DNA of 32,000 nucleotides from assembly GCA_964507075.1 (NCBI GenBank), contig CAZDOL010000006.1, positions 6,511 through 38,510 on the forward strand, written 5' to 3'. Below are positions 7,493 to 30,865 of the stretch, piece by piece. The DNA comes from an uncultured Gammaproteobacteria bacterium (GTDB lineage Bacteria > Patescibacteriota > Patescibacteriia > UBA2591 > UBA6264). A program made the position numbers and the translations under genes. The notes below the pieces were generated by a model. It did no database searches, had not been told where the DNA came from, and saw only the letters and a list, made by a program, of their open reading frames with translations. Within the stretch, counting starts at the first letter, position 1. The number at the start of each line of letters is the position of its first letter.

Positions 7493-7540
7493 AAACATTA
7501 GAACATTAGAACATTAGAACATTAGAACATTAGAACATTT
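7493..7540. repeat. 8-nt tandem array (GAACATTA/AACATTAG), about 5.75 units
   Basis: aacattag is repeated at 7494-7533, with a partial unit running into the ftsK stop codon (7539-7541). The array ends 2 nt from the rodZ-like start codon (7491), so it occupies essentially the whole 47-nt spacer. Confidence 0.95.
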
Positions 7541-9701
7541 ATAAGTCATTATTATTTGTTCGCTCTTCTGGCTCTCCTTCTTCTTCATATGGTTTTTTAT
7601 AAACATCGCGAGGCTTTGCTCCATCTGCTGGACCAATAGTGCCCTCTTCTTCCAATAAATCTAAAAGGCGCGCTGCTCGGGCGTAACCAACCCTTAACCT
7701 TCTCTGTAAAAAAGAAGCTGAAGCTTTGCCAGCTCTAATAATTATTTCTCTGGCCTGAGGTAATAATTCATCTTCCTGTAAATCCCCAAATTTACCACTG
7801 CCACCCAAAGAAGAATGCGATTCAATAATGCCATCTTCATAATTAGGTTCAGCAATATTTTTTAAATAATCAACTATTCCTTTAATCTCTTCGTCGGAAA
7901 CATAAGCTCCTTGTATTCTCTTAGGTTTAGATAATTCAGCGTAAGTGAAAAGCATATCTCCCCTGCCCAATAACTTTTCCGCTCCAGAGAAATCTAAAAT
8001 TGTACGAGAATCAGCACCAGAAACAACTGAAAAAGCTACCCGAGCTGTAATGTTGGCTTTTATCAAACCAGTGATAACATCAACTGATGGCCTTTGGGTA
8101 GCCATAATTAAATGAATGCCAATAGCTCGCGCCATTTGAGCTAACCTAATAATGCAGGCCTCCATATCTTGAGCAGCCACAGACATTAAGTCAGCTAATT
8201 CATCAACAATGATTACAATATATGGCAATTTATTATCAGGATGAGCATCATTATAACTAGAAATGTCTCTCTTCTTGGCCTCAGACAAAACATCAAACCT
8301 TCGGTCCATCTCACCAATAGCCCATTTAAGGGCATTAATAGTCTTTGTAATGTCTGTAATAACTGGAGTTAATAAATGAGGCAATCCATTATAAAGAGTC
8401 AATTCCACTCGTTTGGGGTCAATAAAGATAAATTTTAAGTCATCAATGGAATTCTGATAAAGCAAGCTAATGATAATCGTATTTAAAAATATAGTTTTAC
8501 CAGAACCAGTTGCACCTGCAACCAATAAATGAGGCATGCGAGATAAATCAGCCAAGCAAATATCTCCCGCTACATTTCTTCCTAAAGCCAAAGTCAAATT
8601 ATTCTTTCTTTGTTTGAAACCACTGCTACCTAAAATCTCTCTTAAGCGGATAATGGCTGTTTTTTGGTTAGGAACTTCAATTCCAACCAATGATTTGCCT
8701 GGAATAGGAGCTTCAATACGAATAGGATGGGCAGCTAACGCTAAAGCCAAATCATTGCTCAGGCTGGTAATTTGGGAAAGCTTTACTCCTTCTGCTGGCT
8801 TAAGAGTATATTGAGTAACAGTAGGTCCGACTTTTATTTCTCTCATTTCCACTGGAATTGAAAAATTTTCCAAAGTTCTTCTAATAATAGAAGCATTTAA
8901 TTTTGTATCGCCTCCTTGAGCTTTAGTGGAATCACTTTCTAATAAATTAAGGGGAAGGTCAACCTTGTGAAAACTTTTAGGAGAAGGAACTGTTATTTCT
9001 AAATTCTCTTTTTCAACGTGATATGATTTTTCAGACAATTTAGAATCAGCAGCTGCTATTTCTTCAGATATTCTTTTTATGGGAGAGAAAAGCTTTCCAC
9101 AAAATTTCCTTTTAGGCCTTTCCTCAACCTCTATTATTTCTTCCTGTTCTTCCTCTGCTTCTTCTTGAACTCCTTTAGGAAGAGGATTCTTTAAAAATTT
9201 AATTTTTATCAAACCCTCAAAAATAATGATTAAAGTTACTAAAAAAATACAGATAAAAATCAATGTCGTGGCCAAAATTCCAAAAGTATTTACCAAAAAA
9301 TAGCTAAAAGCATAACCAATATAGCCACCTCCCTTGTTCGCGCTTAAAGCAGTTGAGTCAGAAACAAAATTAAGATGCATAAAACTCGCACAAATCAAAA
9401 GTAATAAAAACAAACTAAGAACTCGGGTGCTAAACTTTCGCTGTTTCTCTTGAATTTTAAAATAATTTAAAAATAAATAAGCAAGTATTAACAAAAATAC
9501 TGGAACTATCCAGCCCACCCAACCAAACAGAAAAAGAAGTCCTTGAGCTAAAAAATTTCCCACTAAACCAGCTGCATTCAATAATCCCAGAAATAAAATA
9601 ACCGCTAAAGTAATTAAAACAATAGCGATAATCAAATTCTGAGATTTGGATTTATTCTTTTTGACTTTAACTGACTTTTTTCTTACTTTAGGGCGAGACA
9701 T
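7539..9701 (-). CDS. ftsK: DNA translocase FtsK
   Basis: N-terminal TM helices, a linker, a motor domain with Walker A GATGSGKT and Walker B IVIIVDELADL, and a C-terminal gamma winged helix (FLQRRLRVGYARAARLLDLLEEEG). Confidence 0.95.
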   Translation of the reverse strand: MSRPKVRKKSVKVKKNKSKSQNLIIAIVLITLAVILFLGLLNAAGLVGNFLAQGLLFLFGWVGWIVPVFLLILAYLFLNYFKIQEKQRKFSTRVLSLFLLLLICASFMHLNFVSDSTALSANKGGGYIGYAFSYFLVNTFGILATTLIFICIFLVTLIIIFEGLIKIKFLKNPLPKGVQEEAEEEQEEIIEVEERPKRKFCGKLFSPIKRISEEIAAADSKLSEKSYHVEKENLEITVPSPKSFHKVDLPLNLLESDSTKAQGGDTKLNASIIRRTLENFSIPVEMREIKVGPTVTQYTLKPAEGVKLSQITSLSNDLALALAAHPIRIEAPIPGKSLVGIEVPNQKTAIIRLREILGSSGFKQRKNNLTLALGRNVAGDICLADLSRMPHLLVAGATGSGKTIFLNTIIISLLYQNSIDDLKFIFIDPKRVELTLYNGLPHLLTPVITDITKTINALKWAIGEMDRRFDVLSEAKKRDISSYNDAHPDNKLPYIVIIVDELADLMSVAAQDMEACIIRLAQMARAIGIHLIMATQRPSVDVITGLIKANITARVAFSVVSGADSRTILDFSGAEKLLGRGDMLFTYAELSKPKRIQGAYVSDEEIKGIVDYLKNIAEPNYEDGIIESHSSLGGSGKFGDLQEDELLPQAREIIIRAGKASASFLQRRLRVGYARAARLLDLLEEEGTIGPADGAKPRDVYKKPYEEEGEPEERTNNNDL

Positions 9702-9714
9702 AATGCAAAATTAT

Positions 9715-9740
9715 AATTCCTAATTTCTAATTCCTAATTA
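9715..9740. repeat. 7-nt tandem array AATTYCT, about 3.7 units
   Basis: aattcct aatttct aattcct aatta, starting 13 nt upstream of the ftsK start codon (9701). The same unit and orientation appear at 25173-25193. Confidence 0.85.
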
Positions 9741-9807
9741 AAACGAGGTTTCAAGGGGTTAACAAAAACGGACAATCCCCTTTTTGCAATTATAATGATA
9801 ACATTTT

Positions 9808-12800: not shown

Positions 12801-13578
12801 TAATAGTATTTTTCTTTTTTTCTAAATCTTTAATCATTTTTCCTATGTCAGCCTGAGCTAATAATTTAAAAATTGCCTCCGCGCCAATATCAGCACTGAA
12901 TATATGACCATATTTCAAAGAAAGCTCCCGATATTCAAATTCCGTTAACAACCTTTTTTCTTCTAAATCCATTATTTCTTTTTTTGTTTCTTTGTATTTG
13001 GTTCCTAATGCCAAGATATCATCATCTTCTGTTTTATTGCTCATTAATTCTTTTCTCTTTGTTTTATATTCTTTTTCCAGATTCTCAAGAAGTTCCTTTT
13101 TCAAATTCTGATGGACTTCAGTAATAATAAAATTAGCAAAATAAATTACTTTTTCCAAAGACTGAATGGATACTTGTAAAATCAGCCCTATTTTAGAGGG
13201 CAAACTGCGTAAAAACCAAATATGAGTTACTGGCGCTGCTAAATCAATATGGCCGAATCTTTCTCTCCTGACTAAACTACGAGTCACTTCTACTCCGCAA
13301 CGATCACAGACAATTCCTTTGTAACGCAATTTTTTATATTTTCCGCAAGCGCATTGCCAATCTTTAACTGGACCAAAAATTTTCTGACAAAACAAACCAT
13401 CTCGCTCTGGCTTACGACTGCGATAATTAATAGTTTCTGGTTTAGTAACCTCACCATGCGACCAAGATTTAATCTGTTCAGTTGACGCTAAACTCATGCG
13501 AATCTCGTCAAAATCATGAGGTTTCCTTTGTTTAGTGTCATGTAACACTAAAGTTGAAATTGTAGATGGATTAGCCAT
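9808..13578 (-). CDS. rpoC: DNA-directed RNA polymerase subunit beta'
   Basis: N-terminal zinc motif CACGKYKKLRYKGIVCDRCGVEV, catalytic NADFDGD, and full-length collinearity with RpoC. Confidence 0.98.
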   Translation of the reverse strand: MANPSTISTLVLHDTKQRKPHDFDEIRMSLASTEQIKSWSHGEVTKPETINYRSRKPERDGLFCQKIFGPVKDWQCACGKYKKLRYKGIVCDRCGVEVTRSLVRRERFGHIDLAAPVTHIWFLRSLPSKIGLILQVSIQSLEKVIYFANFIITEVHQNLKKELLENLEKEYKTKRKELMSNKTEDDDILALGTKYKETKKEIMDLEEKRLLTEFEYRELSLKYGHIFSADIGAEAIFKLLAQADIGKMIKDLEKKKNTITDLVKRKKAVQRIKYIRSFISNKIKPEDMVLSVIPVVPPELRPLVPLDGGRFASSDLNDLYRRIINRNNRLKRLYELKAPEVILRNEKRMLQEAVDALFDNNMRSGKTVLSSTGQRRSLKSLADILKGKQGRFRQNLLGKRVDYSGRSVIVVGPKLKLDQCGLPKIMAIELFKPFIASKLIERGLVHNVRSANRIIEQKTEDVWAILEEIIEKSYVLLNRAPTLHRLGIQGFRPVLVEGKAIQIHPLVCTAFNADFDGDTMSVHVPITDMAKKEVKDIILSTNNLLKPATGSSVVTPTKDMVWGIYYMTFLKEGKKEKMHVFSSEQEAVLAYELGKIDLQEKIKVRVGEKIREVSVGRMIFNSILLPGLYDMDKTVDGKELGKIITEAIDQGNSKEVVKILDKVKEYGFSYLTKSGLSFGMNDLPTIKAKDEIIQETEKRVKEISSQYEMGLLAEDERYLKTIEAWIDAKDRVTESVKENKPIFSSVFSMVESGARGSWSQFVQMVGMRGIVRSPSGKLIELPIKSSLKEGYNTLEYFISSHGSRKGSSDTALRTAKAGYLTRRMVDVCQDLLVVEKDCGESQGLRLTKEDNEEMVETWENRLFGRTSAQTLKDPQTKKIIIKSDEIITREKARIINKINPSEFSIHSVLTCKSHRGTCAKCYGYDLAYNKPVKIGTPVGIVAAQSIGEPGTQLTLRTFHTGGVAETDITQGLPRVEELFEVRSGKGQALLSPADGKALVVDNDQERKIIIKCEVDKKEIHRNDKEKKWEIKVKDGQKIKKKEILAIQDKKKILAKNAGQVKIDNKGNITVIYSVDEEVEFDATNRSIWVENNAKVKAGEQLTDGSLDLHELHRLRGKREVEKYILREVQHIYSSQGQHLNDKHVEMIIRQMFSRCFVEDGGDTDLLPGEIVPKGYLLDANKSLKDSSCKKAIARELLLGITKISLSTDSWLSAASFQETSRVLVNAAINGHSDYLRGLKENVIVGRLIPAGTGLRD

Positions 13579-13580
13579 AT

Positions 13581-13615
13581 ATTTAATTATTAATCATCGA
13601 TCATTAATCATTTTA
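13581..13615. repeat. Degenerate 7-nt array YATTAAT, about 5 units
   Basis: atttaat tattaat catcgat cattaat catttta spans the 29-nt rpoB-rpoC spacer and runs into the rpoB stop codon. The same unit family is seen at 30294-30328. Confidence 0.5.
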
Positions 13616-16600
13616 TTTTTCTTCCGTTTTTAATCATTTCAATATTCAAACAAAGACCTTTTAACTCTCGGATCAAAACATTAAACGACTCAGGAACATT
13701 AATTTCTTTTACCATATCACCCTTAATAATGGATTCGTAAGCTTTTGTGCGCCCAATCACATCGTCAGATTTAATGGTTAACATCTCCTGTAAAGTATAA
13801 GCAGCGCCATATCCTTCCAGAGCCCAAACCTCCATTTCCCCAAATCTTTGTCCGCCAAATTGTGCTTTCCCGCCTAAAGGCTGTTGGGTGATAAGAGAAT
13901 AAGGGCCAATAGAACGCTGATGAATTTTATCTTCCACTAAATGATTCAATTTTAAAGCATAAATATAGCCGACTGTAGTTTTATTTTTAAATTTTTCTCC
14001 AGTTTTCCCGTCATAAAGATACATTTTGCCATCAGCTGAATAGCCTGCTTTAACTAACTCTTTACTAATCTCTTCTTCTGTGACTCCATTTAAAACTGGA
14101 GTAGCTGCCCTATAATTTAATTTTTTGGCAGCTAATCCTAAATGAGTTTCTAAAATCTGCCCAATATTCATACGAGAGACAACGCCCAAAGGGTTAAGAA
14201 TAATATCAATCACTTGACCATCATCCAAATAAGGCATATCTTCTTGTGGAACAATTTTAGATACCACTCCTTTATTGCCATGGCGACCAGACATTTTGTC
14301 TCCAACCTGAATCTTCCTTAAATCAGCAACTAGGATTTGAATAGATCTAATTACGCCTGGTTGTAATTTGTCACCATTTTCTCTAGAAAATATTTTAATT
14401 CCTATGACTTTACCATGTTCGCCGTGTTCAAGGTAAAGAGAAGAATCGCGAATATCTTGAGCTTTCTCGCCAAAAATCGCCTTTAAAAGTTTTTCTTCTG
14501 CTGTTAACTCTGCTTCGCCACGAGGAGTAATTTTGCCAACCAAAATGTCTCCTGATTTTACTTCTGCACCAATTCTAATAATTCCCTCTTCATCTAGATC
14601 TTTTAATTTTACTTCACTGACGTTGGGAATGTCACGGGTAGTCATTTCCAGACCAAACTTTGTTTCGCGAATATCAATCGTATGCTCATCAATGTGCAAA
14701 GAGCTAAATTTATCATTTTGCACCAAACGAGAAGACAGCAAAATAGCATCTTCAAAATTTCCCCCCTCCCAAGACATAAAGGCGCAAAGAACATTATGAC
14801 CCAAAGCTAACTCACCATTTTCCATTGAGGCCCCTTCAACTAAAATATCTCCTGCTTTAAATTTCTCTCCCATAGCAACCACCGGTTGTTGATTAAAACA
14901 AGTATTAAAATTAGAACGATCGTATTTTTTTAAACTGTAATTCTGACTAAGACCTGATTTATAGCGCAAAACAATATGAGCAGAATCAACTTCCATGACC
15001 TTTCCGTCTTCAGGAGCTTCAAGTAAATGACCAGAATCCCGAGCCGCCCTACCCTCAACGCCAGTACCAACCAAAGGAGTATCTGGTTTAATTAATGGAA
15101 CAGCTTGACGTTGCATATTACTGCCCATTAAAGCTCGAACCCCATCATCATGTTCTAAGAAAGGAATAAGTGCAGTAGCCACGCTCACAATCTGATTAGC
15201 AGCTATGTCAGTAAATTCAACTTCACTTGTTTTACAAAAACCAGGATGACCATAAATCCGAGCCTCTACAGTGTTATTAATAATCTTATTGTTTTTATCA
15301 ATAGCCGACGTAAAAGGCATTAAAATATGTTCTTCTTCTTCAAATGCATTTAAAAAAGTAATTTCCTTGGTTATTTTTCCTTTAATTACTTTATAGTAGG
15401 GGGTTTCAATAAACCCATATTCATTTAAACGCGAATAGCAAGCTAAATAATTAACCAAACCAACGTTTGGTCCTTCTGGGGTAGCAATAGGACAAATCTT
15501 GCCATAATAAGTTCTGTGCACATCACGCACTTCAAATCCAGCCCTCTCCCTAGATAAACCACCAGGACCAACAACAGTTAATCTTCTTTTATGCTCTAAT
15601 TCAGAAAGTATGTTGGTTTGATCCATGAATTGAGAGAGCTGAGAAGACATAAAAAATTCTCTAATTACTCCCACAATTGGCTTAATATTTATCAATTGTG
15701 CTGGTCCGTATTTTTTAGACTCAATAAGACCCATTCTGTCGCGAACAATCCTTTGTACCCTTAACATCCCCACTCTCATCCTATTTTGTACTAATTCCCC
15801 AATAGCCCTCACCCTACGATTAGATAAATGGTCAATATCATCCGCAGGAGTTTGTCTAACATTGAGTCTAATCAATTCACTTATAATGGCTTTAAGATCT
15901 TCTGGCCTGATAGTGCGCTTGGTTATCTTGGGATCTAAATGAAGGCGCTGACTCAATTTATATCTTCCCACTTTACTGAGATCATAACGGCTATAATTGA
16001 AAAACATAGCATATATTAAAGACCTAGCATTATCAGCAGTTGCCAAATCTCCTGGTCTAATTTTACGATAAACCTCAATTAAACCTCCGTCTTCTGAGGC
16101 CGAAGGATCTTTATCTAAGGTATTCTGGACATATTTGCTATTTATAATTTCTTTGTCTCTTTTGAATAAATCCAAAATTTCCTTATCTGAGCCAAAACCA
16201 AAAACTCGCAAGAGCGCAGTAGCGGGAATTTTCCTTTGGCGATCAATTCTTACCCAAATTATTCCCTTGGTGTCGGTTTCAAACTCCAGCCAAGCTCCTC
16301 TATCAGGAATAACCTTGGCACTATAATAAAATCGACCCTTAAGACGAGTACGAGCAAAAATAATACCAGGCGATCTAATTAATTGCTGAATAATAACCCT
16401 TTCAATCCCATTAATAATTAAAGTCCCCTTGTCAGTCATCAAGGGGATGTCTCCAAAATAAACATCTTGTTCTATTTTCTTGCCTGTTTTTTTGTTAATT
16501 AAACGCACCTTTACTGTTAAAGGTGCTTCATATGTTAAATTTCTATTTTTACTAATAATTTGATCAAATTTTGGATTCCCCAAAGAACAATTTAAAAAAT

Positions 16601-16778
16601 GTAATTCAAAATTTTTGCCAATCAGGTCTTCAATCGGCGAAAATTCTTTTATTAATTCTCCTATTCCTTGATTTAAAAACCAATCATATGATAATTTCTG
16701 GTTTTTGGTCAAATCTGGCAAAGTGGCATTAGAATTAATGGTAGCTTTTGAAAAAAATTTACGTTTTTGAGAAAACAT
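13608..16778 (-). CDS. rpoB: DNA-directed RNA polymerase subunit beta
   Basis: Full-length RpoB-like sequence, including GRHGNKGVVS, NPLGVVSRMNIGQILE and GGQRFGEMEVWALEGYGAAYTLQE. Confidence 0.98.
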   Translation of the reverse strand: MFSQKRKFFSKATINSNATLPDLTKNQKLSYDWFLNQGIGELIKEFSPIEDLIGKNFELHFLNCSLGNPKFDQIISKNRNLTYEAPLTVKVRLINKKTGKKIEQDVYFGDIPLMTDKGTLIINGIERVIIQQLIRSPGIIFARTRLKGRFYYSAKVIPDRGAWLEFETDTKGIIWVRIDRQRKIPATALLRVFGFGSDKEILDLFKRDKEIINSKYVQNTLDKDPSASEDGGLIEVYRKIRPGDLATADNARSLIYAMFFNYSRYDLSKVGRYKLSQRLHLDPKITKRTIRPEDLKAIISELIRLNVRQTPADDIDHLSNRRVRAIGELVQNRMRVGMLRVQRIVRDRMGLIESKKYGPAQLINIKPIVGVIREFFMSSQLSQFMDQTNILSELEHKRRLTVVGPGGLSRERAGFEVRDVHRTYYGKICPIATPEGPNVGLVNYLACYSRLNEYGFIETPYYKVIKGKITKEITFLNAFEEEEHILMPFTSAIDKNNKIINNTVEARIYGHPGFCKTSEVEFTDIAANQIVSVATALIPFLEHDDGVRALMGSNMQRQAVPLIKPDTPLVGTGVEGRAARDSGHLLEAPEDGKVMEVDSAHIVLRYKSGLSQNYSLKKYDRSNFNTCFNQQPVVAMGEKFKAGDILVEGASMENGELALGHNVLCAFMSWEGGNFEDAILLSSRLVQNDKFSSLHIDEHTIDIRETKFGLEMTTRDIPNVSEVKLKDLDEEGIIRIGAEVKSGDILVGKITPRGEAELTAEEKLLKAIFGEKAQDIRDSSLYLEHGEHGKVIGIKIFSRENGDKLQPGVIRSIQILVADLRKIQVGDKMSGRHGNKGVVSKIVPQEDMPYLDDGQVIDIILNPLGVVSRMNIGQILETHLGLAAKKLNYRAATPVLNGVTEEEISKELVKAGYSADGKMYLYDGKTGEKFKNKTTVGYIYALKLNHLVEDKIHQRSIGPYSLITQQPLGGKAQFGGQRFGEMEVWALEGYGAAYTLQEMLTIKSDDVIGRTKAYESIIKGDMVKEINVPESFNVLIRELKGLCLNIEMIKNGRKIK

Positions 16779-16802
16779 ATAGCAAAAGGCACTAAAAATT
16801 CC

Positions 16803-16820
16803 CTCAGAAAAAAATCTGAG
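16803..16820 (-). promoter_or_regulatory. Small hairpin in the rpoB leader (CTCAGA-A6-TCTGAG)
   Basis: A 6-bp stem with a 6-nt loop, 25-42 nt upstream of the rpoB start, within a 190-nt AT-rich spacer. Its function is unknown. Confidence 0.2.
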
Positions 16821-16883
16821 AGCTTATTATTTTAAAATTGAATCAAATTTATAAACAAAATGAAAAAATTAAATAGCTCTAAT

Positions 16884-16914
16884 AAAAAAAACAATTATAA
16901 ACGAAATTGTTTTT
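16884..16914 (-). terminator. Weak AT-only hairpin with a T-run downstream of the Mur ligase gene
   Basis: On the - strand: AACAATT, an 8-nt loop, AATTGTT, then TTTTTTT. The stem halves are 16890-16896 and 16905-16911. The stem contains a single G/C pair, so it is weak. Confidence 0.3.
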
Positions 16915-16968
16915 GTTATTGTGAATAATAACTGAAAAATACGAATTTGTCAAACATTTTCCTTTAAA

Positions 16969-18303
16969 TTATCCACAAGTTATCCCCATATCCATTAAAA
17001 ATTCCTTAACTATTTTTCTGTCATCCCAAGCTATTTTTTGTCCATTTGGACCCATAATCCAGGGTTCAGACCCCTTGCCTGTAATAACCACAACATCCCC
17101 TTTTCGAGCCATAGCTAAAGCTTTTTTAATTGCTTCTCCTCTGTTAATAATTTTTTGAAATTTTTTGCTCTTAACGCCAGAAACTATTTGATTGATAATT
17201 TCATTTGGGTCTTCATTGTAAGGGTCTTCATTGGTGACAATAATCTTATCACAATATTTTTCAGCAATAGCTCCCAAGAGAGGTCTCTTTTGTTTGTCCC
17301 TTCCTCCCCCAGCTGAACCAAGGACACAGATTAATTGTTGATTATTGGTTGTTAATTCTTGATTTCTAAGGGTTTGATATACTTTTTCTAAAGAATCTGG
17401 GGTATGAGCATAATCAACAATAACTTGGAAAGGATAGTTAACCATAACTTCCATTCTGCCAGGAATTGTTTTAATTTTAGATAAAGCCTGCTTGCAAATG
17501 TTTAAATTTATTCCCTGTGACAAGACAAAACAAATTGCGCTTAAGCTGTTATAGATATTAAATTTGCTCAATAAATTTAATGTAAACCCTAAACCCTGAA
17601 CTGTAAACTTTGACCCCTTTGAATTTAATCTTATATCCTCTGCTTTAATAACTTTCAAATTTTGTCCAAGGTTTAATGTTTCTCGTTTAAAGTTTATTCC
17701 GTATCCATATTCTTTGTCAAATTCAAAATCTAAAAAATAAGAACTGTTCTTGTCATCTAAATTAACGATATTAACTTTTGGGATAATTCGGTCCTTGATT
17801 GTTTTACGACATCTTTGGCTTATGTGTTGAAAAAGTTTTTGTTTTGCTTGGCGATATTTTTCAAAACTTCCATGCGATTCAATGTGCTCTGGCGATAAAT
17901 TAGTAAAAATACCAATATCATAATTGATACCCAAATGTCTACATTGACTAACGCCCTGAGAAGTTGTTTCTATTATGGCATATTCACACCTATTCTGAAG
18001 CATTTTTCTTAAAAATTTTTGCAAAGAGAAACGACCTAACATAGTCATTTTTCTTTTATTGATAAACTCTTTCCCGGCAATCTTAAAATTAAATGTAGTG
18101 GTTAACCCTACTCTATGTCCTGCTTCTTCTAAAATTTGACAAATTAAATTAGCAACCGTAGATTTGCCAGCCGTACCTGTAATGCCAATCACAATCATGT
18201 GACGACTTGGATAGCCGTAAACAAAAGCTGCTAAATGAGCCAAAAACCAGTGATAAAATTGCCAGAAAGGCCTAGGAATTATTTTTTTTAATATTCTCTT
18301 CAT
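16969..18303 (-). CDS. Mur ligase family protein, MurE-like (UDP-MurNAc-tripeptide synthetase-like)
   Basis: P-loop GITGTAGKST, DYAHTPDSLEKV, and C-terminal VVVITGKGSEPW. The usual N-terminal UDP-binding domain of about 90 aa is replaced by a hydrophobic segment of about 35 aa. Confidence 0.75.
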   Translation of the reverse strand: MKRILKKIIPRPFWQFYHWFLAHLAAFVYGYPSRHMIVIGITGTAGKSTVANLICQILEEAGHRVGLTTTFNFKIAGKEFINKRKMTMLGRFSLQKFLRKMLQNRCEYAIIETTSQGVSQCRHLGINYDIGIFTNLSPEHIESHGSFEKYRQAKQKLFQHISQRCRKTIKDRIIPKVNIVNLDDKNSSYFLDFEFDKEYGYGINFKRETLNLGQNLKVIKAEDIRLNSKGSKFTVQGLGFTLNLLSKFNIYNSLSAICFVLSQGINLNICKQALSKIKTIPGRMEVMVNYPFQVIVDYAHTPDSLEKVYQTLRNQELTTNNQQLICVLGSAGGGRDKQKRPLLGAIAEKYCDKIIVTNEDPYNEDPNEIINQIVSGVKSKKFQKIINRGEAIKKALAMARKGDVVVITGKGSEPWIMGPNGQKIAWDDRKIVKEFLMDMGITCG

Positions 18304-18326
18304 TTATGTCTCGCTAAATTTTCAAT

Positions 18327-18602
18327 TTATTTCTTATTTAACTTCCCCTTCCTAAATATTTCTAATCTTTCATTAATTACCCGTTGGATGTTCTCTGGCC
18401 TAAGCTCATATATGGAAACACCCATAGTCGTATCTTCCAATCTTATGTCGGGTGAAGTAAACAACACGTAAGGAGGAGTTTTCTTATAGCCCTCTTGAAT
18501 GCCAAGGTAATTTAACCCCAATCCTTCTATAATTTCTCTGCATTCTTTCTCAGACAATACTTTCTCCATATTAAAAATTTTTTTATTTTCATCAAATTCC
18601 AT
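18327..18602 (-). CDS. Hypothetical protein (91 aa)
   Basis: The ORF sits co-directionally in a gap between the Mur ligase gene and scpB. I recognised no motif. Confidence 0.45.
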   Translation of the reverse strand: MEFDENKKIFNMEKVLSEKECREIIEGLGLNYLGIQEGYKKTPPYVLFTSPDIRLEDTTMGVSIYELRPENIQRVINERLEIFRKGKLNKK

Positions 18603-18628
18603 ATATTTTACCTATATTATTGATTTAT

Positions 18629-18647
18629 TTGGAAGCTGAGCTTCCAA
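18629..18647 (-). terminator. Hairpin immediately after the scpB stop (TTGGAAGC-TCA-GCTTCCAA on the - strand)
   Basis: A perfect 8-bp stem with a 3-nt loop, 3 nt after the scpB stop. It is followed by A/U-rich sequence but no clean U-run, so it may be a stabiliser or attenuator rather than a terminator. Confidence 0.3.
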
Positions 18648-18650
18648 ACT

Positions 18651-19232
18651 TTACTCCTCTTCGTTTAAGTTTCTATTATTTAATCTTTCGTAATCTGGGA
18701 GTTCCTGAACATCATTGATTCCAAGGTGTTTGATAAAATCTACACTAACAGAATAAATATTGTTATCATAGTCTATTTGTTCTTCGTTGGCTTGAAGTTT
18801 ATCATCCTTTGCGACCACCTTATTCACAACCTTCTCTATTATCAAACCCTTTATAAGAAGATGGCGGAGAATAATACTACAATTTATCCCTCTAATCTTT
18901 TCTAAGTCCAATTTAGTTAATGGTCCCCGATAAGCAATGATTGACAGTGTCTCTAAGGAAGCTGGGGTAAGTTCTTGGCAAACTTCTGTTTTTAAAAATT
19001 TCTGCACATATTCACTATTCTGAGGATTAGTCACCATTTGTAATGATTTGTCATTGTTAATAATATTTATGCCTCTATCAGGTTCTTTATATTCTTCAAC
19101 AAGTTCATTAAAAATTTCTTCCAAATCATTAACATTTTGACCAATGTTTTTAGCTATTTCTTTCTTGTCTATTGGCCTGTTTGCTATAAAAAGCAAGCTC
19201 TCAATATTGGATTTTAATTCTTGATTATTCAT
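18651..19232 (-). CDS. scpB: Segregation and condensation protein B
   Basis: IESLLFIANRPIDKKEIAK and LSIIAYRGPLTKLDLEKIRGINC match the ScpB winged-helix repeats. It lies downstream of scpA. Confidence 0.85.
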   Translation of the reverse strand: MNNQELKSNIESLLFIANRPIDKKEIAKNIGQNVNDLEEIFNELVEEYKEPDRGINIINNDKSLQMVTNPQNSEYVQKFLKTEVCQELTPASLETLSIIAYRGPLTKLDLEKIRGINCSIILRHLLIKGLIIEKVVNKVVAKDDKLQANEEQIDYDNNIYSVSVDFIKHLGINDVQELPDYERLNNRNLNEEE

Positions 19233-19244
19233 ATTTTAATTAAA

Positions 19245-19964
19245 TTATATTTTTTTATTTAAACTATTCTTAGAGGTTATATTAATATCTTCAAAAAGTC
19301 CCTTTTGATCAATCTCAATCTTGTGACATTTCATCAATTCTAAAATAGCTAAAAACATTACTGATTTCTCGGCTTTTGATTTATTTTCAATTACTTTATT
19401 AAATATAAACTGCCCTTTCTCATGCAACAAAGACAACATTTCATTTATCTTACTTTTTAAAGAGAAAACTCTACGCTTAACGGTTTTTAAAGACAATCTG
19501 GCTTGCTCTTTAATAATAAAAATAAAACTCCCAAAATTTTTTCTCAAAACATGAGAGTTAAGATTATGTGGAAAATTAAAGGCAAAAACAATCTTTCCAG
19601 ATAATTTATCTTTACTAAAACAACAACGTGGATTGGAAAAAAGTTCTCCTACTTTTTTGGTAGCAGAAACATATTCTTGATAAAGCCTTAATTGATTTAC
19701 CAAACCACGAGAATCTTCTTCGTCTTCGTCTAAAATCTGTTCTGGAAGCAACAATTTGGATTTAATGAGAATGAGTTTAGCAGCTATATTCAAAAAATCA
19801 GCTAATTCTCCCGTCCTAATTTTTTCAATCTCTTTTATGTAACCTAAAAACTGATTAGTCACCTGAACTAAAGCAATTTCCGTAATATCTAATTTTTCCT
19901 TTTCAATTAAATGCAACAACAAGTCAAATGGTCCTTGAAATTGAGGAAGATTAATATTGTACAT
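19245..19964 (-). CDS. scpA: Segregation and condensation protein A (kleisin)
   Basis: The N-terminus FQGPFDLLLHLIEKEKLDITEIALVQVTNQFLGYI is the ScpA signature. Confidence 0.85.
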   Translation of the reverse strand: MYNINLPQFQGPFDLLLHLIEKEKLDITEIALVQVTNQFLGYIKEIEKIRTGELADFLNIAAKLILIKSKLLLPEQILDEDEEDSRGLVNQLRLYQEYVSATKKVGELFSNPRCCFSKDKLSGKIVFAFNFPHNLNSHVLRKNFGSFIFIIKEQARLSLKTVKRRVFSLKSKINEMLSLLHEKGQFIFNKVIENKSKAEKSVMFLAILELMKCHKIEIDQKGLFEDINITSKNSLNKKI

Positions 19965-20010
19965 AAAAATATTAAAACAAATGTTAAATCTTATGTAAAA
20001 TAACGTTGAG

Positions 20011-20139
20011 ATGCGATATAACGCGTGATAATAAAATATTTAAATACAGGGTTAAAATTTTAGAAAAACATACCATTTAATGGCACGAGAAGGGTCCTTA
20101 GAGCAATGTTGCAAAAGACCAACCCGACGGGTTTGTATT
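20011..20139. repeat. Copy A of a conserved intergenic element of about 129 bp
   Basis: Collinear with 23550-23678. Both share ATGCGATATAA, then a 33-nt variable stretch, then an 85-nt core with about 75 of 85 positions identical by hand count. The core includes a 37-nt identical block (20097-20133). The right end abuts the alaS stop codon. Confidence 0.9.
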
Positions 20140-21958
20140 AATTAAGGATGGCTTTTATTCGGCGGATGCCGGCGCTACTGGATTTTTCTTTAATGATTTT
20201 GAATTGTCCTAATTCCTTAGTGTTTTTGACATGAGGTCCGGCACAAATTTCCATACTAAAAGGAAATTCTGAGCTTGTAGAAGAACTATCACCGATTGTG
20301 TAGACTTTGACTATTTCTGGATATTTTTCTCTGAAAAAAGCTAAAGCCCCCCCTTCAATTGCTTGCTTATATGGCATTTCTTTCATTGTGACAAGAAGCG
20401 CTTCTTGTATTTTCTTGTTTACAATTTCTTCTATTTTAATTTTTTCTTCTTCTGTTAATTTCTGAGAATAAGTAAAATCAAATCTAAGGCGTTCGGGGTT
20501 GATGTCTGAGCCAGCCTGATGGACACTATCTCCTAAAACTTCTCTTAATGCCTGATGTAAAAGATGAGTGGCAGTATGTAGCTTGGTAACCTTTATTTTA
20601 GATTCTTCGCTTTCAACACTATCAATGCCAACTCCCCCAAATTTATTCTGCACTCCCGCTTTAGAAATCTCTTGATGTTTTTTAGATTCTCTTTCAACAG
20701 CATTTTCATCTATTTTCAAATTTTCTTTTCTAGCTATTTCTCCCGTTACCCCAGGATGAAGACCATAAGTATCGTATAAATGAAAAACTGTCTTAGGGTC
20801 AAGAAAATTTTGTTTCTTGGAATGTGCTTCTTTAACTATATCTTTAAGTCTTTTCAATCCTATGGAAGTAGTTTGATTAAATTTATTTTCTTCGTTTTCT
20901 ATTGTCCTTAAAATGTCATCTTTATTTTCAACTAATTCTGGATAAAAATTAGAATATAAATCAATGGCTGTTTGGGCTATTGGGAGTAAAAATTCTTCTT
21001 GGTCGTTAATCAACTTTGAGCAACGCATTGCTCTTCTAATAAGACGCCTTAAGATATATCCCCTGTCTTCTTTGCTGGGCAGAATGCCATCTGAAATTAA
21101 AAAACAAGCTGCCCGAACATGGTCAGCAATAATTCTTTGATATTTTTTGTTAATTTCATCGACATTAGCAATTTCTTCAATCTTATGCATTAAAGGTAAA
21201 AATAAATCTGTTTCATAGTCAGAGGGCTTGTTTTGTAAAACGCAAGCTAATCTTTCCAAACCCGCGCCAGTGTCAATATTTTTAACTGTTAATTTTTCAT
21301 AACTTCCATCTGCTGTTTTATTATATTCCATAAAAACCAAGTTCCAAATTTCTACAAATCTTCCACAACTACAATTTGGTCCACAATTAGGCTGGTCGCA
21401 TTCTTTAATTTTAAAATTTAATCCTCTGTCATAATATATTTCCGAACAAGGGCCACAAGGACCGTTGCTACCAATTGGCCCCCAAAAATTATCTTTTATT
21501 CCAAAATAACTTATTCGTTCTTTGGGAATCCCGTTTTCTAACCAAATTTTTTCAGCTTCTTTGTCTACCTCTATTCCTTTAGTTCCATCAAAAAGAGTAA
21601 CCCAAATATGGGCAATATCTAAATAATAATAATTGGTTAATAGGTCCATTGCCATTTGAATTGCTTCTTTTTTAAAATAACCATCAAAAGACCAATTACC
21701 TAACATCTGAAAAAAGGTATGGTGAAATTCGTCTCCGACTTCCTCAATGTCTGAGGTGCGAAAACATTTTTGAATAGAACAAATTTCACTATCAATTGGA
21801 TTAATTTTTCCACTCAAAAAAGGAATAAATTGTTGCATGCCAGCAGAAGTAAAAAGCACGCTCTGATCAGCGGGAATCAAAGAAGACGAGGGCATAATTT
21901 TATGCCCCTTTTTTTGGAAATAATCTAAAAAAATTTCTCTAATTTCACTAACTTTCAT
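20138..21958 (-). CDS. alaS: Alanine--tRNA ligase, short form lacking the C-Ala domain
   Basis: FTSAGMQQF, NGPCGPCSEIYYD, and the editing-domain zinc motifs HTATHLLH and CAGPHV. The protein ends about 35 aa after CAGPHV, at 606 aa. Confidence 0.95.
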   Translation of the reverse strand: MKVSEIREIFLDYFQKKGHKIMPSSSLIPADQSVLFTSAGMQQFIPFLSGKINPIDSEICSIQKCFRTSDIEEVGDEFHHTFFQMLGNWSFDGYFKKEAIQMAMDLLTNYYYLDIAHIWVTLFDGTKGIEVDKEAEKIWLENGIPKERISYFGIKDNFWGPIGSNGPCGPCSEIYYDRGLNFKIKECDQPNCGPNCSCGRFVEIWNLVFMEYNKTADGSYEKLTVKNIDTGAGLERLACVLQNKPSDYETDLFLPLMHKIEEIANVDEINKKYQRIIADHVRAACFLISDGILPSKEDRGYILRRLIRRAMRCSKLINDQEEFLLPIAQTAIDLYSNFYPELVENKDDILRTIENEENKFNQTTSIGLKRLKDIVKEAHSKKQNFLDPKTVFHLYDTYGLHPGVTGEIARKENLKIDENAVERESKKHQEISKAGVQNKFGGVGIDSVESEESKIKVTKLHTATHLLHQALREVLGDSVHQAGSDINPERLRFDFTYSQKLTEEEKIKIEEIVNKKIQEALLVTMKEMPYKQAIEGGALAFFREKYPEIVKVYTIGDSSSTSSEFPFSMEICAGPHVKNTKELGQFKIIKEKSSSAGIRRIKAILN

Positions 21959-23549: not shown

Positions 23550-23678
23550 ATGCGATATAAGACGTTATGAAGAAATGAAAATGCATGTCCCCACAATTTT
23601 GAAAAAACATACCCTTTAATGACACAAGAAGTGGTCTTAGAGCAATGTTGCAAAAGACCAACCCGACGGGTTAGTATT
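23550..23678. repeat. Copy B of the conserved intergenic element of about 129 bp
   Basis: See copy A. The 37-nt identical block is at 23636-23672. The right end overlaps the stop codon and last codons of the MraY/WecA-family gene. Confidence 0.9.
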
Positions 23679-24747: not shown

Positions 24748-24751
24748 AATA

Positions 24752-24796
24752 ATGCTCTAATGTTCAAATGTTCTCATGTTCAAATGTCTGATGGTC
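24752..24796. repeat. 8-nt-period array of ATGYTC hexamers, about 5-6 units
   Basis: atgctc(ta) atgttc(aa) atgttc(tc) atgttc(aa) atgtct(g) atggtc. This is the reverse orientation of the GAACAT arrays at 7493-7540 and 30224-30262. It covers the spacer before the transferase start (24747) and the last 10 codons of ruvX. Confidence 0.85.
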
Positions 24797-25162
24797 AATA
24801 TAATCTTGCAAAATAATGCTTGCTGCAATAGCGTGATTTTCTTTATTTGATGAGAAATTGTTGGCCATCTTACTCGTAAATCTTTCGTCAAAAATAACAA
24901 TTGGTAAATCAAATTCTTTTTTGCATTGTTTAATAAATTTCTCTGTTCTCTTTGTTTGTTCGCTACTATTGCCAGATAGACTAATTGGATGTCCAATTAT
25001 TACCTTTGTTATTTTTTGTTTTAAAATAATTTCTTGCAAATCTTTGAATAATAAAGAAATATTCTCTCCTTGTATTGTTTTATATGGTGTAGCTATCCTT
25101 GTTTGCAAAGGAGCAATGGCTAATCCAATATATTTGGCGCCATGGTCAATGGATAATAACAT
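24764..25162 (-). CDS. ruvX: YqgF/RuvX putative pre-16S rRNA nuclease / Holliday junction resolvase-like protein
   Basis: MLLSIDHGAKYIGLAIAP (N-terminal catalytic Asp region), GHPISLSGNSSEQT and VIFDERFTS are YqgF motifs. Confidence 0.85.
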   Translation of the reverse strand: MLLSIDHGAKYIGLAIAPLQTRIATPYKTIQGENISLLFKDLQEIILKQKITKVIIGHPISLSGNSSEQTKRTEKFIKQCKKEFDLPIVIFDERFTSKMANNFSSNKENHAIAASIILQDYIDHQTFEHENI

Positions 25163-25172
25163 AAGTTAAAAT

Positions 25173-25193
25173 AATTTCTAATTTCTAATTCCT
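25173..25193. repeat. 7-nt tandem array AATTYCT, 3 units
   Basis: aatttct aatttct aattcct, starting 10 nt upstream of the ruvX start codon (25162). Same unit and orientation as 9715-9740. Confidence 0.85.
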
Positions 25194-25208
25194 AAAGATG
25201 TCCAAAAT

Positions 25209-25249
25209 GGGGACAGGCACCTTCGGAGCCAGTCCCCGGGACAGTCCCC
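25209..25249 (-). terminator. GC-rich hairpin plus an adjacent GGGACAGTCCCC motif downstream of map
   Basis: 25209-25237, GGGGACAGGCACCTTCGGAGCCAGTCCCC, folds into a stem of about 11 bp with two A-A mismatches. On the - strand it is followed by ATTTTGG. A further GGGACAGTCCCC copy lies at 25238-25249. Confidence 0.5.
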
Positions 25250-25274
25250 TCCAGCTCCTCTTTAACGACTGACG

Positions 25275-26132: not shown

Positions 26133-26163
26133 CCTCTTCGGTGCCAGGCACCGAAATGAGAGG
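26133..26163 (-). terminator. GC-rich interrupted hairpin downstream of adk
   Basis: CCTCT-TCGGTG-CCAGG-CACCGA-AATG-AGAGG gives 11 bp in total with a 4-nt bulge. The core is the 19-nt palindrome TTCGGTGCC-A-GGCACCGAA at 26137-26155. On the - strand it is followed by AGCCTCTTTAAAT. Confidence 0.4.
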
Positions 26164-26189
26164 CACCGTTTTAATAACAACACTTGTAT

Positions 26190-26834: not shown

Positions 26835-26903
26835 AAAAATGCTTCGCTTAAAATTCCAAATACAGATTTCATAGAGGATCATTGATGGCTTCGCCATCGG
26901 GAC

Positions 26904-26968
26904 AAACTCTAAATTCTAAACTCTAAATTCTAAACAAATTCTAAACTCTAAATTCAAAATTCTAAACA
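26904..26968. repeat. 7-nt tandem array AAAYTCT, about 9 units, with 14-nt higher-order structure
   Basis: aaactct aaattct aaactct aaattct aaac aaattct aaactct aaattca aaattct aaaca, in the secY-adk spacer. Confidence 0.9.
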
Positions 26969-26985
26969 TATTTATTTTAATCATT

Positions 26986-27031
26986 TGGATTTTGATATTG
27001 TTTCGGATTTCGGATTTCGGATTTCGGATTT
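26986..27031. repeat. 7-nt tandem array CGGATTT: 4 perfect units plus degenerate leading units
   Basis: tggattt tgatatt gttt, then cggattt x4 (27004-27031). Confidence 0.85.
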
Positions 27032-27048
27032 CCGTTGCAAGGCAACGG
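27032..27048 (-). other. Perfect hairpin CCGTTGC-AAG-GCAACGG abutting the secY stop codon
   Basis: A 7-bp stem with a 3-nt loop, directly adjacent to the secY stop (27049-27051). On the - strand it is followed by the (AAATCCG)n array rather than a U-run, so it is not a canonical terminator. Confidence 0.5.
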
Positions 27049-28329: not shown

Positions 28330-28340
28330 ACCTGAAAAAA

Positions 28341-29305: not shown

Positions 29306-29323
29306 AGATAAAATTAAATTATT

Positions 29324-29656: not shown

Positions 29657-29667
29657 ATATTTTTCTG

Positions 29668-30216: not shown

Positions 30217-30223
30217 AAGTTAA

Positions 30224-30262
30224 GTCATTTGAACATTAGAACATTTGAACATTAGAACATTA
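30224..30262. repeat. 8-nt tandem array GAACATTW: 4 full units plus a degenerate leading unit
   Basis: gtcattt gaacatta gaacattt gaacatta gaacatta. It ends 8-9 nt upstream of the rplF start codon (30216). Same family and orientation as 7493-7540. Confidence 0.9.
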
Positions 30263-30293
30263 ATGCTAAAAATCAAATGTCTGTGGTCAAACG

Positions 30294-30328
30294 GATTAAT
30301 TATTAATTATTAACTATTGATTGTTAAA
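30294..30328. repeat. Degenerate 7-nt array TATTRAY, about 5 units
   Basis: gattaat tattaat tattaac tattgat tgttaaa. Related to 13581-13615. Confidence 0.55.
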
Positions 30329-30330
30329 TT

Positions 30331-30358
30331 GTTCCCATGTTCCCATGTTCCCATGTTA
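30331..30358. repeat. 8-nt tandem array GTTCCCAT (ATGTTC + CC), 3.5 units
   Basis: gttcccat x3 plus gtta, ending at the base before the rpsH stop codon (30359-30361). The ATGTTC core is in the opposite orientation to 30224-30262. Confidence 0.9.
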
Positions 30359-30784
30359 TTACCATATTTGACAAATGACCTCACCACCAATATTATGCTC
30401 CCTTGCTTCCTGGTCAGTCATTAAACCGTTGGAGGTAGACAAAATAGCCAATCCAAAACCTTTCAAAACCCTAGGTATACGGTTTCCCCTAACATAAACT
30501 CTGCGACCAGGCTTACTAATCTTTTGCAAAGAATTAATAACTGATTTCTGTTGGGTATCATACCTGAAAGTAATTTTTATTCGTTTAAAATTAGCGGCCT
30601 TATTGAAATTTTTATTCTTTTCTTTACATAAATCAATAACCTCCACTTTTTTTATCAAGTTTTCTTTTTCTAAAATTTTGCCAATATTAAATTTAATTTT
30701 GGAATGCGGAAAAACTATCGCTTGTTTCTTCACTAACAAAGCGTTCCTTATTCTCGTCAACATATCCGCAATTGGGTCTGTCAT
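30359..30784 (-). CDS. rpsH: 30S ribosomal protein S8
   Basis: MTDPIADMLTRIRNA is the canonical S8 N-terminus, so the start is at 30784. The ORF-track ATG at 30793 adds only MRN. Confidence 0.95.
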   Translation of the reverse strand: MTDPIADMLTRIRNALLVKKQAIVFPHSKIKFNIGKILEKENLIKKVEVIDLCKEKNKNFNKAANFKRIKITFRYDTQQKSVINSLQKISKPGRRVYVRGNRIPRVLKGFGLAILSTSNGLMTDQEAREHNIGGEVICQIW

Positions 30785-30826
30785 ATTTCTCAATTATTTT
30801 AATTAATATAATTATTTTAATAAAAT

Positions 30827-30865
30827 CCCGATTACCTAAGTACCCGATTACCTAAGTACCCATTA
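30827..30865. repeat. 16-nt tandem repeat CCCGATTACCTAAGTA, 2.4 units
   Basis: Units at 30827-30842 and 30843-30858, both perfect, plus partial cccatta at 30859-30865. It ends 2 nt before the rpsN stop codon (30868-30870). Confidence 0.95.

Follow-up and report, generated by a model that had tools for sequence, protein, structure and literature searches.

Long simple sequence repeats, as later papers summarize them, are built from units of 5–11 nt, among which heptamers are the commonest, and are patchily distributed (Mrazek, Guo and Shah 2007, via PMC4679880 and PMC4692102); the slippage basis proposed for them is that ~7 nt corresponds to the segment contacted by the polymerase (Mrazek et al., via the same papers). 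Here we describe arrays of 7- and 8-nt tandem units in the spacers between housekeeping genes, including the spc ribosomal operon, of a 32,000-nt stretch of contig CAZDOL010000006.1 (the whole of which we refer to as the window; contig GC ~33%) from a member of the Patescibacteria, or Candidate Phyla Radiation (CPR). Like long simple sequence repeats, these arrays consist of head-to-tail units within the 5–11 nt range that exceed chance (217 versus 0.6 nt), are mostly intergenic, have a patchy lineage distribution (25, 13.9, 0, 2.2 and 0.7 arrays per 100 kb in the five sets of sequence described below) and vary in unit number and sequence at conserved loci (ftsK/rodZ, secY/adk and loop 2 of a Mur ligase). 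They differ in that octamers are here as common as heptamers and several complementary families coexist. The window arrays belong to an already described repeat class, and what is new is a member of it from the CPR; the literature searched makes no mention of such arrays in CPR/Patescibacteria. The initial annotation of the window, made from the sequence alone, was unaware that reports from other phyla had already described the phenomenon and put forward the same hypotheses.

A described system of similar placement is the TAACTGA heptamer of marine Beggiatoaceae, some Cyanobacteria and five Bacteroidetes (MacGregor 2015, PMC4679880). Copies number between two and six, sometimes more, and most of them stand a few nt upstream of a start codon where the spacer has no ribosome-binding site, ribosomal-protein operons being among the locations; reverse copies follow stop codons, a few copies lie in open reading frames (ORFs) at tolerant positions, close relatives are without the repeats, and S1, Csp and CsrA have been proposed as candidate binders (PMC4679880). 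The arrays described here share with it the start-proximal placement, the missing ribosome-binding sites, the presence in ribosomal operons, an orientation rule, occasional copies within ORFs at tolerant sites and the patchiness among relatives. Specifically, six window arrays end 2–12 nt from a start codon in a genome poor in Shine-Dalgarno (SD) sites, a placement analogous to that of the TAACTGA repeats. One heptamer dominates in that system, whereas at least six families and frequent inverted arms are found here. TAACTGA itself forms no array in the window, where a single match with two mismatches lies inside a gene, no more than expected by chance.

Other described repeats resemble the arrays in part. 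GGGAATC repeats of Xanthomonas and GGGGAYT repeats of Nostoc are intergenic, form inverted pairs, follow a rule relating orientation to distance, and vary in length and sequence between close relatives at conserved loci (Rehm 2015, PMC4692102). The intergenic position, some inverted pairs able to form stem-loops, an orientation tied to ORF distance and the variation among close relatives are shared with our arrays; those units are G-rich and quadruplex-capable, whereas the window units are AT-rich and cannot form quadruplexes. Cyanobacterial repeats of the STRR type (short tandemly repeated repetitive) are 7-bp intergenic units within operons, hairpin-capable and of unknown function, for which roles in transcript stability or translational coupling have been suggested, with stabilisation of transcripts proposed for the hupS-hupL hairpins (PMC2670836); to judge from the title of a cited study, an STRR also lies inside a structural RNA gene. 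The arrays are like STRRs in that 7-bp units stand in tandem in the spacers of operons and could form hairpins, and unlike them in that the host belongs to the Patescibacteria and is not cyanobacterial. The window units are AT-rich and presumably also differ from STRR units in sequence. Repetitive extragenic palindromes (REPs) and the related BIMEs and REPINs are likewise intercistronic hairpin repeats dispersed through operons, and our composite spacers fold similarly; REPs are single palindromes of ~20–40 nt mobilised by RAYT transposases, whereas the stems here are made of tandem 7–8 nt units and no RAYT was seen. The view first taken, that the arrays are not REP units or miniature inverted-repeat transposable elements (MITEs), is probably correct. 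What defines the REP, REPIN and MITE classes is a discrete palindrome with fixed ends, scattered in many near-identical copies and often accompanied by a transposase; the arrays show hairpin folds and one relocated module, and ~200 kb of clade sequence yielded no defined ends, target duplications or transposase. Nor are they CRISPR arrays, as had also been noted, since those have repeats of ~23–50 nt with unique spacers of like length between them, whereas the units here, of 7–16 nt, are contiguous and have no spacers. A periodic short motif in an mRNA leader recalls the sites read by TRAP, on which the initial annotation had modelled a shared ligand. TRAP requires 9–11 (G/U)AG triplets with gaps of 2–3 nt, and the window contains no run of at least 6 on either strand; AATTAGR places its triplets 4 nt apart, TTTAGAR spaces them irregularly, and the triplet is missing from ATGTTCTA, AAATCCG and AACATGGG, so that the analogy finds no support.

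Named homologs of the window proteins are labelled Patescibacteria or Parcubacteria, and its SecY is only 59–60% identical to those of the closest species representatives. Pfam bore out the gene names first given on the − strand, which include recA, an HTH_25 RodZ-like gene, ftsK, rpoC, rpoB, a Mur ligase gene, scpB and scpA, together with alaS, a TrwB-like ATPase gene, a family-4 glycosyltransferase (GT4) gene, ruvX, map, adk, secY and the spc ribosomal genes. Arrays were detected with Tandem Repeats Finder (TRF), and each was then read on the mRNA strand. All eleven arrays first reported, in eight spacers, were recovered within a few bases of the positions then given (Table 1). They cover 365 of the 749 nt of these spacers (49%) and 96% of ftsK/rodZ, in keeping with the claim that they make up most of the non-coding bases in several spacers and essentially all of that one. 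Some details required revision: the CGGATTT array (AAATCCG in mRNA sense) is present with perfect matches and properly starts at 27001, and both YATTAAT arrays (rpoB/rpoC and the S8/L6 spacer between rpsH and rplF) are found by TRF and are weak and AT-rich. Because the spacers are repeat-rich, two start codons had been miscalled from ORFs. The start of adk most likely lies at ~26834 rather than 26897, as homologs are ~216 aa long and alignment at the N-terminus begins with residue 22 of the long ORF; for rpsH the likely start is the ATG at 30784 instead of a TTG at 30793. The claim that arrays end 2–13 nt from a start codon or abut a stop accordingly holds for the six start-proximal arrays and fails for the AAAYTCT array, ~69 nt from adk. 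The absence of arrays from the + strand accessory block, also pointed out at first, carries little weight, as there is only ~220 nt of spacer there and the accessory blocks of relatives have arrays. The whole window gave no match to Rfam at the gathering threshold.

A strict test based on gapless self-alignment, in which periods 5–12 were compared and the window was set against dinucleotide-preserving shuffles (n = 1000), indicated that 217 of 1780 spacer nt (12.2%) lie in period-7/8 arrays, compared with 0.6 ± 3.5 nt in shuffles (an expectation of 0.03% of spacer bases); none of the 1000 shuffles reached the observed value. In this test the window contained no arrays of periods 5, 6 or 9–12. 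The proposed enrichment of spacers relative to shuffled sequence is thus upheld for the window. Confinement to spacers is upheld in the main, with only 0.06% of coding DNA in period-7/8 arrays, and fails at the Mur ligase loops, where arrays are in frame, and at the ruvX/GT4 array, which lies mostly within ruvX. An assembly artefact, a possibility initially raised, can be set aside: an independent contig in the European Nucleotide Archive (L001) matches window positions 27274–23647 with 99.95% identity, no gaps and four arrays of identical copy number, and orthologous arrays occur in other samples. The arrays are stable between near-identical genomes, since there are no indels between the window and L001 (3.6 kb, 99.95% identity), between L082 and L083 (20.6 kb, 99.89%) or between L091 and L092 (13.8 kb, 99.84%).

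The units fall into about six families, most of them in complementary pairs: ATGTTCWA with AACATGGG/GAACATNN, TTTAGRR with AAATCYN, AATTAGR with CCTAATT, GGGTAMTY with CCCAATTA (paired in the secY/adk and map/ruvX spacers of L238 and in map/ruvX of L237), CAAGAWA with TATCTTG, and AACAATY/TTAATAA. The recurrence of the same cores at unlinked loci in both orientations, a central point of the initial annotation, is therefore confirmed. Within the housekeeping block one orientation tends to adjoin the downstream start codon, and its complement tends to lie just past the upstream stop codon.

To place the arrays among relatives, we compared syntenic contigs at graded distances, fetched via Adk and FtsK homologs. 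L082/L083, L089, L090, L091, L237 and L238, with 81–89% protein identity to the window, form with it an array-bearing clade, of which ~200 kb was examined; L084, L086, L088 and L093 (70–78%) and L239 (74%) represent outer lineages, and 1.36 Mb of other bacterial spc-region loci served as background. Per 100 kb, the window has 25 period-7/8 arrays and the clade has 13.9; the value is 0 for the sister CPR lineages, 2.2 for CPR at a greater distance and 0.7 for the other bacteria. No arrays are present in the syntenic contigs of L084, L086, L088 and L093, and L239 has a single AACAATY array, so that among the CPR lineages compared the trait is confined to one clade. As anticipated, some orthologous spacers of close relatives contain arrays and share families with the window: the closest relatives have the same unit families, although copy numbers differ and the spacer occupied is often not the same one. 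The ftsK/rodZ spacer has ATGTTCTA x5 in the window, x3 in L089, unrelated sequence in L091 and, in L090, other heptamers within a 271-nt spacer. The map/ruvX spacer has AATTAGR in the window, pure ATGTTCTA x4.6 (30 nt) in L082, a GGGTAMTY/CCCAATTA hairpin in L238 and a bare 3 nt in L086. The secY/adk arrays are kept in relatives with changed units, and the rpoB/rpoC spacer measures 29–31 nt with an array and 3–8 nt in relatives without one. The arrays are extra DNA, the array-free relatives having minimal spacers. At four-fold degenerate sites the window and L082/L089 are 65% identical (saturation would be 33%), and given this divergence an array with 100% internal identity must either have arisen lately or undergo continuous homogenisation. 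Array turnover is thus fast relative to neutral divergence, which supports an origin by slippage.

Arrays of the spacer families also occur in frame in the Mur ligase gene, at two variable surface loops. In loop 2, exactly four heptamers and then AATTAAT occupy the same codons in all four clade members, with the unit AATCAAC in L089, AATCCTA/AATTCYA in L090, AATCCCC in L091 and a degenerate version in the window; in the outgroup L093, loop 2 is free of arrays. Here an array evolves in concert under frame constraint, and since the array lies within coding sequence it cannot be a spacer signal.

Two further observations concern where arrays come from and whether they move. The unit ATGTTCTA resembles the conserved 5′ ends of rodZ (ATGTTTCTA; in the window gene itself ATGTT(T)CTA), ruvX (ATGTTAYTA) and rplW, encoding L23 (ATGTCTTTA), and these 5′ ends are unchanged in array-free outgroups. 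The likeness suggests that arrays were seeded by tandem duplication of a start region. In the S8/L6 spacer a composite is found in the order AACATGGG x3.5, AT-rich heptamers, a TTGACC-N16-TAGCAT core and ATGTTCWA x4.6. Over 84 nt its core and right arm are 88% identical to positions 5948–6031 of L082, where they lie upstream of rpsH (S8) and the core reads TTGACA-N16-TAGTAT; the whole composite is upstream of rpsH in L237 and upstream of L6 in the window, and the orthologous S8/L6 site of L239 has a short version of the core without arrays. Such cassettes expand in place and also relocate.

With a confidence only somewhat better than even, we favour the view that the arrays are lineage-specific long simple sequence repeats, products of slippage and conversion that are tolerated rather than a purpose-built signal; the involvement of slippage, already considered in the initial annotation, is part of this explanation. 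Replication slippage would first duplicate a short segment, near start codons often the gene's own ATGTT... 5′ end, after which slippage and short-patch gene conversion between arrays would expand, contract and homogenise them. Template switching, an established mechanism for quasi-palindromes, could act here between the arms of an inverted pair and keep complementary arrays matched, and occasional recombination may carry whole cassettes to neighbouring spacers. As 7 and 8 are not multiples of 3, arrays would persist only in spacers or, at frame-preserving lengths, in tolerant protein loops. Selection would only filter the sites of persistence, and an AT-rich, SD-poor genome would tolerate arrays as intercistronic or leader sequence; effects on expression through hairpins or unstructured leaders would be a by-product on which no locus depends. 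Both these molecular steps and the near-neutrality of the arrays are what we infer. Several observations are in line with them: the in-frame Mur arrays, the likeness to gene starts, the restriction to one clade, the minimal spacers of array-free relatives and folds that give no sign of RNA-strand-specific selection (4 sense, 6 antisense; see below). The same class of repeat is in the literature, with heptamers commonest and polymerase slippage proposed, and sporadic arrays exist in unrelated bacteria and in a Bacteroidota contig.

Other observations fit less well with tolerated slippage products. Simple slippage does not predict that periods other than 7 and 8 should be strictly excluded, and the families that recur across many spacers are few, about six complementary ones; both facts call for an extra assumption, be it the polymerase footprint, conversion between arrays or selection. 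The relocated 84-nt module is 88% identical, compared with 65% at neutral sites, yet lies in a different spacer, which indicates either constraint or recent movement. Arrays tend to adjoin stop and start codons in an orientation-specific manner, a rule that repeats of other phyla also show and that could reflect function. Finally, no slippage event was seen directly, with 0 indels in the three near-identical assembly pairs.

Functional readings have to be weighed against tolerance. Start-proximal arrays might form a post-transcriptional platform that recruits ribosomes or a regulator (S1, a cold-shock protein or a CsrA-like protein) to SD-less genes, and would then make up a lineage-wide translational network such as has been proposed for the Beggiatoaceae TAACTGA repeats; we regard this as a tentative possibility and on the whole unlikely. 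Consistent with it, six window arrays end 2–12 nt from a start codon, one orientation is favoured there, start-proximal arrays that stand alone have no structure (z from −0.8 to +0.7), and the same placement, ribosomal-protein operons included, is reported in Beggiatoaceae and Bacteroidetes. The genome is SD-poor, as first supposed, with even a 4-mer SD core in just 3 of 31 genes, and leaders in the window are 82% A+T. Set against these points, orthologous genes in relatives of 70–89% identity have no array or one of a different family, and members of the same families lie past stop codons, at a distance of 69 nt from adk and within the coding sequence of mur. In L238 an array-built hairpin with a predicted −34.8 kcal/mol extends to the ruvX start codon and would bury the region before it. 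At least six unrelated units would need several binders, or one without specificity, and within the window the tendency of arrays to lie at spacer edges is not significant (P = 0.08). The related suggestion of AU-rich standby platforms thus may apply to lone unstructured start-proximal arrays and does not hold in general, given hairpins that reach a start codon and arrays within ORFs.

Less probable again are selected intercistronic RNA hairpins, whose stems would act like those of REP/BIME or STRR hairpins; they might shield the mRNA upstream of them from 3′ exonucleases, cause partial termination, or be processed by RNase III and so set expression ratios within operons. What speaks for selection on hairpins is that same-family pairs within one spacer are inverted in 8 of 8 independent cases and direct in none, and that spacers with such pairs form, in predicted folds, long imperfect hairpins whose stability greatly exceeds that of shuffles, with z-scores of −3.7 to −4.2 for S8/L6 in the window, −4.7 for rpoC/ftsK in L089 (where a T-run follows), −4.5 for ftsK/rodZ in L090 and −6.2 for map/ruvX in L238; the hupS/hupL STRR hairpins, moreover, have been suggested to stabilise transcripts. 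Against it, no G-U asymmetry separates the sense and antisense strands. Sense was more stable in 4 paired-array spacers and antisense in 6, and because the two fold about equally the palindromy is a symmetric property of the DNA; on these grounds we rejected selection specific to the RNA strand. In addition, about half of the window arrays are unpaired, the hairpins come and go at the same spacer between close relatives, and inverted pairs can, we infer, arise without selection by template switching.

Slippage alone leaves the period restriction, the orientation rule and the moved 88% module unexplained, and for this reason we retain three rivals, namely the translational platform, REP-like RNA hairpins and miniature mobile cassettes. 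A more far-reaching and doubtful proposition is that the arrays are not passive: a small repertoire of complementary unit families would form relocatable cassettes of array, core and inverted array, which could be a mobile-element class hitherto unrecognised or could constitute a clade-wide post-transcriptional code replacing SD control. Were this true, the Bacteroidota and Beggiatoaceae cases would be parallel examples.

That such cassettes are miniature non-autonomous elements, array-core-complementary array, moved by some enzyme is quite improbable in our judgement. The AACATGGG...TTGAC core...ATGTTCWA composite does lie upstream of L6 in the window and, in L237, upstream of S8; the core with its right arm, found before S8 in L082 as well, is more alike than neutral sites (88% versus 65%); the same families occupy different spacers of different genomes, and other small palindromic elements invade the same spacers and even the arrays themselves. 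Yet neither defined ends nor target-site duplications came to light, the ~200 kb of clade sequence showed no transposase, filled and empty sites resemble expansion of local sequence in situ (rpoB/rpoC, rodZ, ruvX), and the L239 core is short and array-free at the orthologous S8/L6 site.

Arrays of double-stranded DNA operators for a ribbon-helix-helix (RHH) repressor are very improbable. In the models for such binding, omega protein reads 7-bp heptads and MetJ reads 8-bp metboxes, direct and inverted units being tolerated, and the 7–8 bp period, contiguous units and two orientations of the arrays fit this general picture, as does the promoter-like core that some of them flank. Many arrays nevertheless lie between tightly linked cistrons without a promoter, or inside an ORF; several unrelated units would each need their own regulator, and neither the window nor its syntenic relatives showed a gene for a candidate regulator. 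Sigma-70-like sites, moreover, are in no excess over shuffles (38 found, 40.8 expected), which also led us to reject a promoter role for the arrays; a conserved −35/−10-like pair is present only in the S8/L6 core.

Least credible of all are contingency loci, slippage-prone tracts switching expression on and off at high frequency as had been considered initially, for although start-adjacent tandem repeats are the classical arrangement for phase variation, no indels separate assemblies of 99.8–99.95% identity over 20.6, 13.8 and 3.6 kb, and the genes affected are essential housekeeping ones (ribosomal proteins, RNA polymerase, secY, ftsK). We also tried and dropped a LexA/Cheo-box reading of GAACAT/ATGTTC, as GAAC-N4-GTTC occurs nowhere in the window, and a mini-ORF relay (ATG TTC TAA overlapping the next ATG), as the ORF opened by the last unit before rodZ is out of frame and ATG is missing from the other families.

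Table 1. Tandem arrays and associated features of the window, with units in mRNA sense.
Feature	Position	Strand	Unit, copies and detection	Context and relatives
ftsK/rodZ array	7494..7539	-	ATGTTCTA x5.8, period 8, 100% matches (TRF)	Occupies spacer from ftsK stop codon to 2 nt before rodZ ATG
rpoC/ftsK array	9714..9739	-	AATTAGG/AATTAGA heptamers x3.7 (TRF)	12 nt upstream of ftsK start; preceded by GC-rich hairpin after rpoC stop; same spacer in L089, L090, L091 and L093 without it
rpoB/rpoC array	13583..13612	-	ATGATTA-like heptamers x4.3, 78% matches, weak (TRF)	Spans rpoB stop and rpoB/rpoC spacer
Mur ligase loop 2 remnant	17332..17367	-	Degenerate four-unit heptamer array (AATCAAG AATTAAC ...)	In frame, encodes RNQELTTNNQQL
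ruvX/GT4 array	24751..24798	-	GAACATNN octamers, 16-nt unit x3.1, period 8/16 (TRF)	Complement orientation of ATGTTC; mostly last ~11 ruvX codons, holds ruvX stop, fills ruvX/GT4 spacer; ortholog in L082 (11841-11878); reproduced in independent contig L001
map/ruvX array	25172..25195	-	AATTAGG/AATTAGA heptamers x3.4 (TRF)	9 nt upstream of ruvX start
secY/adk right arm	26904..26966	-	TTTAGAA/TTTAGAG heptamers x9.4, period 7/14 (TRF)	~69 nt upstream of corrected adk start; orthologous arrays in L082 and L237
secY/adk left arm	27001..27032	-	AAATCCG heptamers x4.6, 100% matches (TRF)	16 nt past secY stop, immediately after small hairpin; imperfect complement of TTTAGRR family; whole secY/adk spacer folds at z = -3.0
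S8/L6 composite right arm	30226..30262	-	ATGTTCTA/ATGTTCAA octamers x4.6 (TRF)	9 nt upstream of rplF start; predicted fold pairs it with 30330-30357
S8/L6 composite core	30263..30294	-	Sigma-70-like TTGACC-N16-TAGCAT, 9/12 matches	
S8/L6 AT-rich heptamers	30295..30327	-	TTAATAA/AACAATC-type x4.7, 80% matches (TRF)	Related AACAATY arrays in L089 mur, L090 ftsK/rodZ, L239 L29/S17
S8/L6 composite left arm	30330..30357	-	AACATGGG octamers x3.5, 100% matches (TRF)	1 nt past rpsH stop
Array after rpsN	30827..30865	-	GGGTACTTAGGTAATC x2.5, period 16 = two 8-nt sub-units (TRF)	2 nt past rpsN stop; first described as a 16-mer, a member of GGGTAMTY family; degenerate ortholog in L239

The arrays extend heptamer-type long simple sequence repeats to the CPR, whose genomes are small and compact, so that extra spacer DNA in ribosomal-protein and RNA-polymerase operons is unexpected. 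The clade offers a comparative system of syntenic genomes at 70–100% identity, with or without arrays and with arrays paired or lone, that could help to answer why units of 7–8 nt are favoured and whether they have a role in SD-less translation. In practical terms, arrays mislead gene callers on start codons, as at adk and rpsH, and can break assemblies.

Beyond the clade, a metagenome scan with ATGTTCWA x2.75 returned at least 119 contigs of 26–67% GC, none orthologous to the window; with matches in so many unrelated contigs, we rejected this 8-mer array as a lineage marker. Several low-GC metagenome contigs have compound spacer arrays in which TTTAGAA-type heptamers lie beside TAGAACAT-type octamers. 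One of these contigs was placed in the Bacteroidota by the neighbours of its RelA/SpoT protein, and NCBIfam typing of other array-rich contigs was uninformative. We note that the ATGTTCWA array is present in 24 viral contigs (L213–L236), several of them from giant-virus bins and some with long runs. In the background set, one to three 7- or 8-nt arrays lie near the spc operons of L022 (12428–12495), L028 (19811–19875), L047 and L051 (14466–14540); the hosts with such sporadic arrays are Chelatococcus, a Neomarinimicrobiota metagenome-assembled genome (MAG), Kumtagia and a gammaproteobacterial MAG, and one case is an inverted pair, CGGCAGT / ACTGCCT.

Small palindromic elements of other kinds were found in the same spacers. 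GC-rich palindromic mini-insertions (CCTGCCTGCCGG...CCGGCAGGCAGG, GCCTACTCCGCCGAAGTAGC...) lie within or beside heptamer arrays, at 9822–9860 in L082, at about 1830–1950 in L237 and, in coding sequence, in Mur ligase loop 1 of L090 and L091; heptamer arrays seem to be preferred landing sites for this other small element. A MITE-like palindromic element, CCCTGTTAAATAATTTCGC ... TTTAACAGGG, occurs in ribosomal-operon spacers, array-free lineages included, with copies in L088 (6517–6658 and 9820–10000), L082 (3296–3396), L237 (484–727 and 2494–2677) and L238 (563–748). The S8/L6 and secY/adk spacers are repeatedly the expanded ones.

Several further elements of the window itself are distinct from the arrays. 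An 84-nt repeat, with copies at 20056–20139 and 23595–23678 that are 89% identical, follows alaS and the glycosyltransferase gene closely on their 3′ side (− strand); it opens with a CCCGTCGGG hairpin followed by a T-rich run, has no Rfam match, is kept in the corresponding spacers of L082, L086 and L238, and may be a terminator together with a small conserved RNA or promoter module. GC-rich palindromes of the GGGGACTGTCCCC type, at 5759, 5776, 5801 and 25238 (within 5739–5814 and 25200–25260), form very stable hairpins (z = −5.5 downstream of recA), conspicuous at 33% GC, and resemble terminators or a family of small palindromic elements. Upstream of rpoB, the 190-nt spacer (16779–16968), with a TTGACA-type promoter, a long leader and no Rfam match, is highly conserved in the clade and recognisable in the 72% outgroup L093, and may be an uncharacterised leader element of rpoB. 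At 1751–1869, two ~30-nt direct repeats (GTAGTAARTTAGTACCAGTTTACGACAA) follow a TTGACT hexamer upstream of a 445-aa ORF (1870–3207), in an arrangement that looks like an operator. Among the relatives, L084 (78% identity) has at 13033–20645 a type I CRISPR-Cas set (Cas6, Cas8b-like, Cas7, Cas5, Cas3 and Cas4) that, together with RadC and a ParE/Phd pair, lies directly downstream of map and takes the place of the ruvX-GT4 block.

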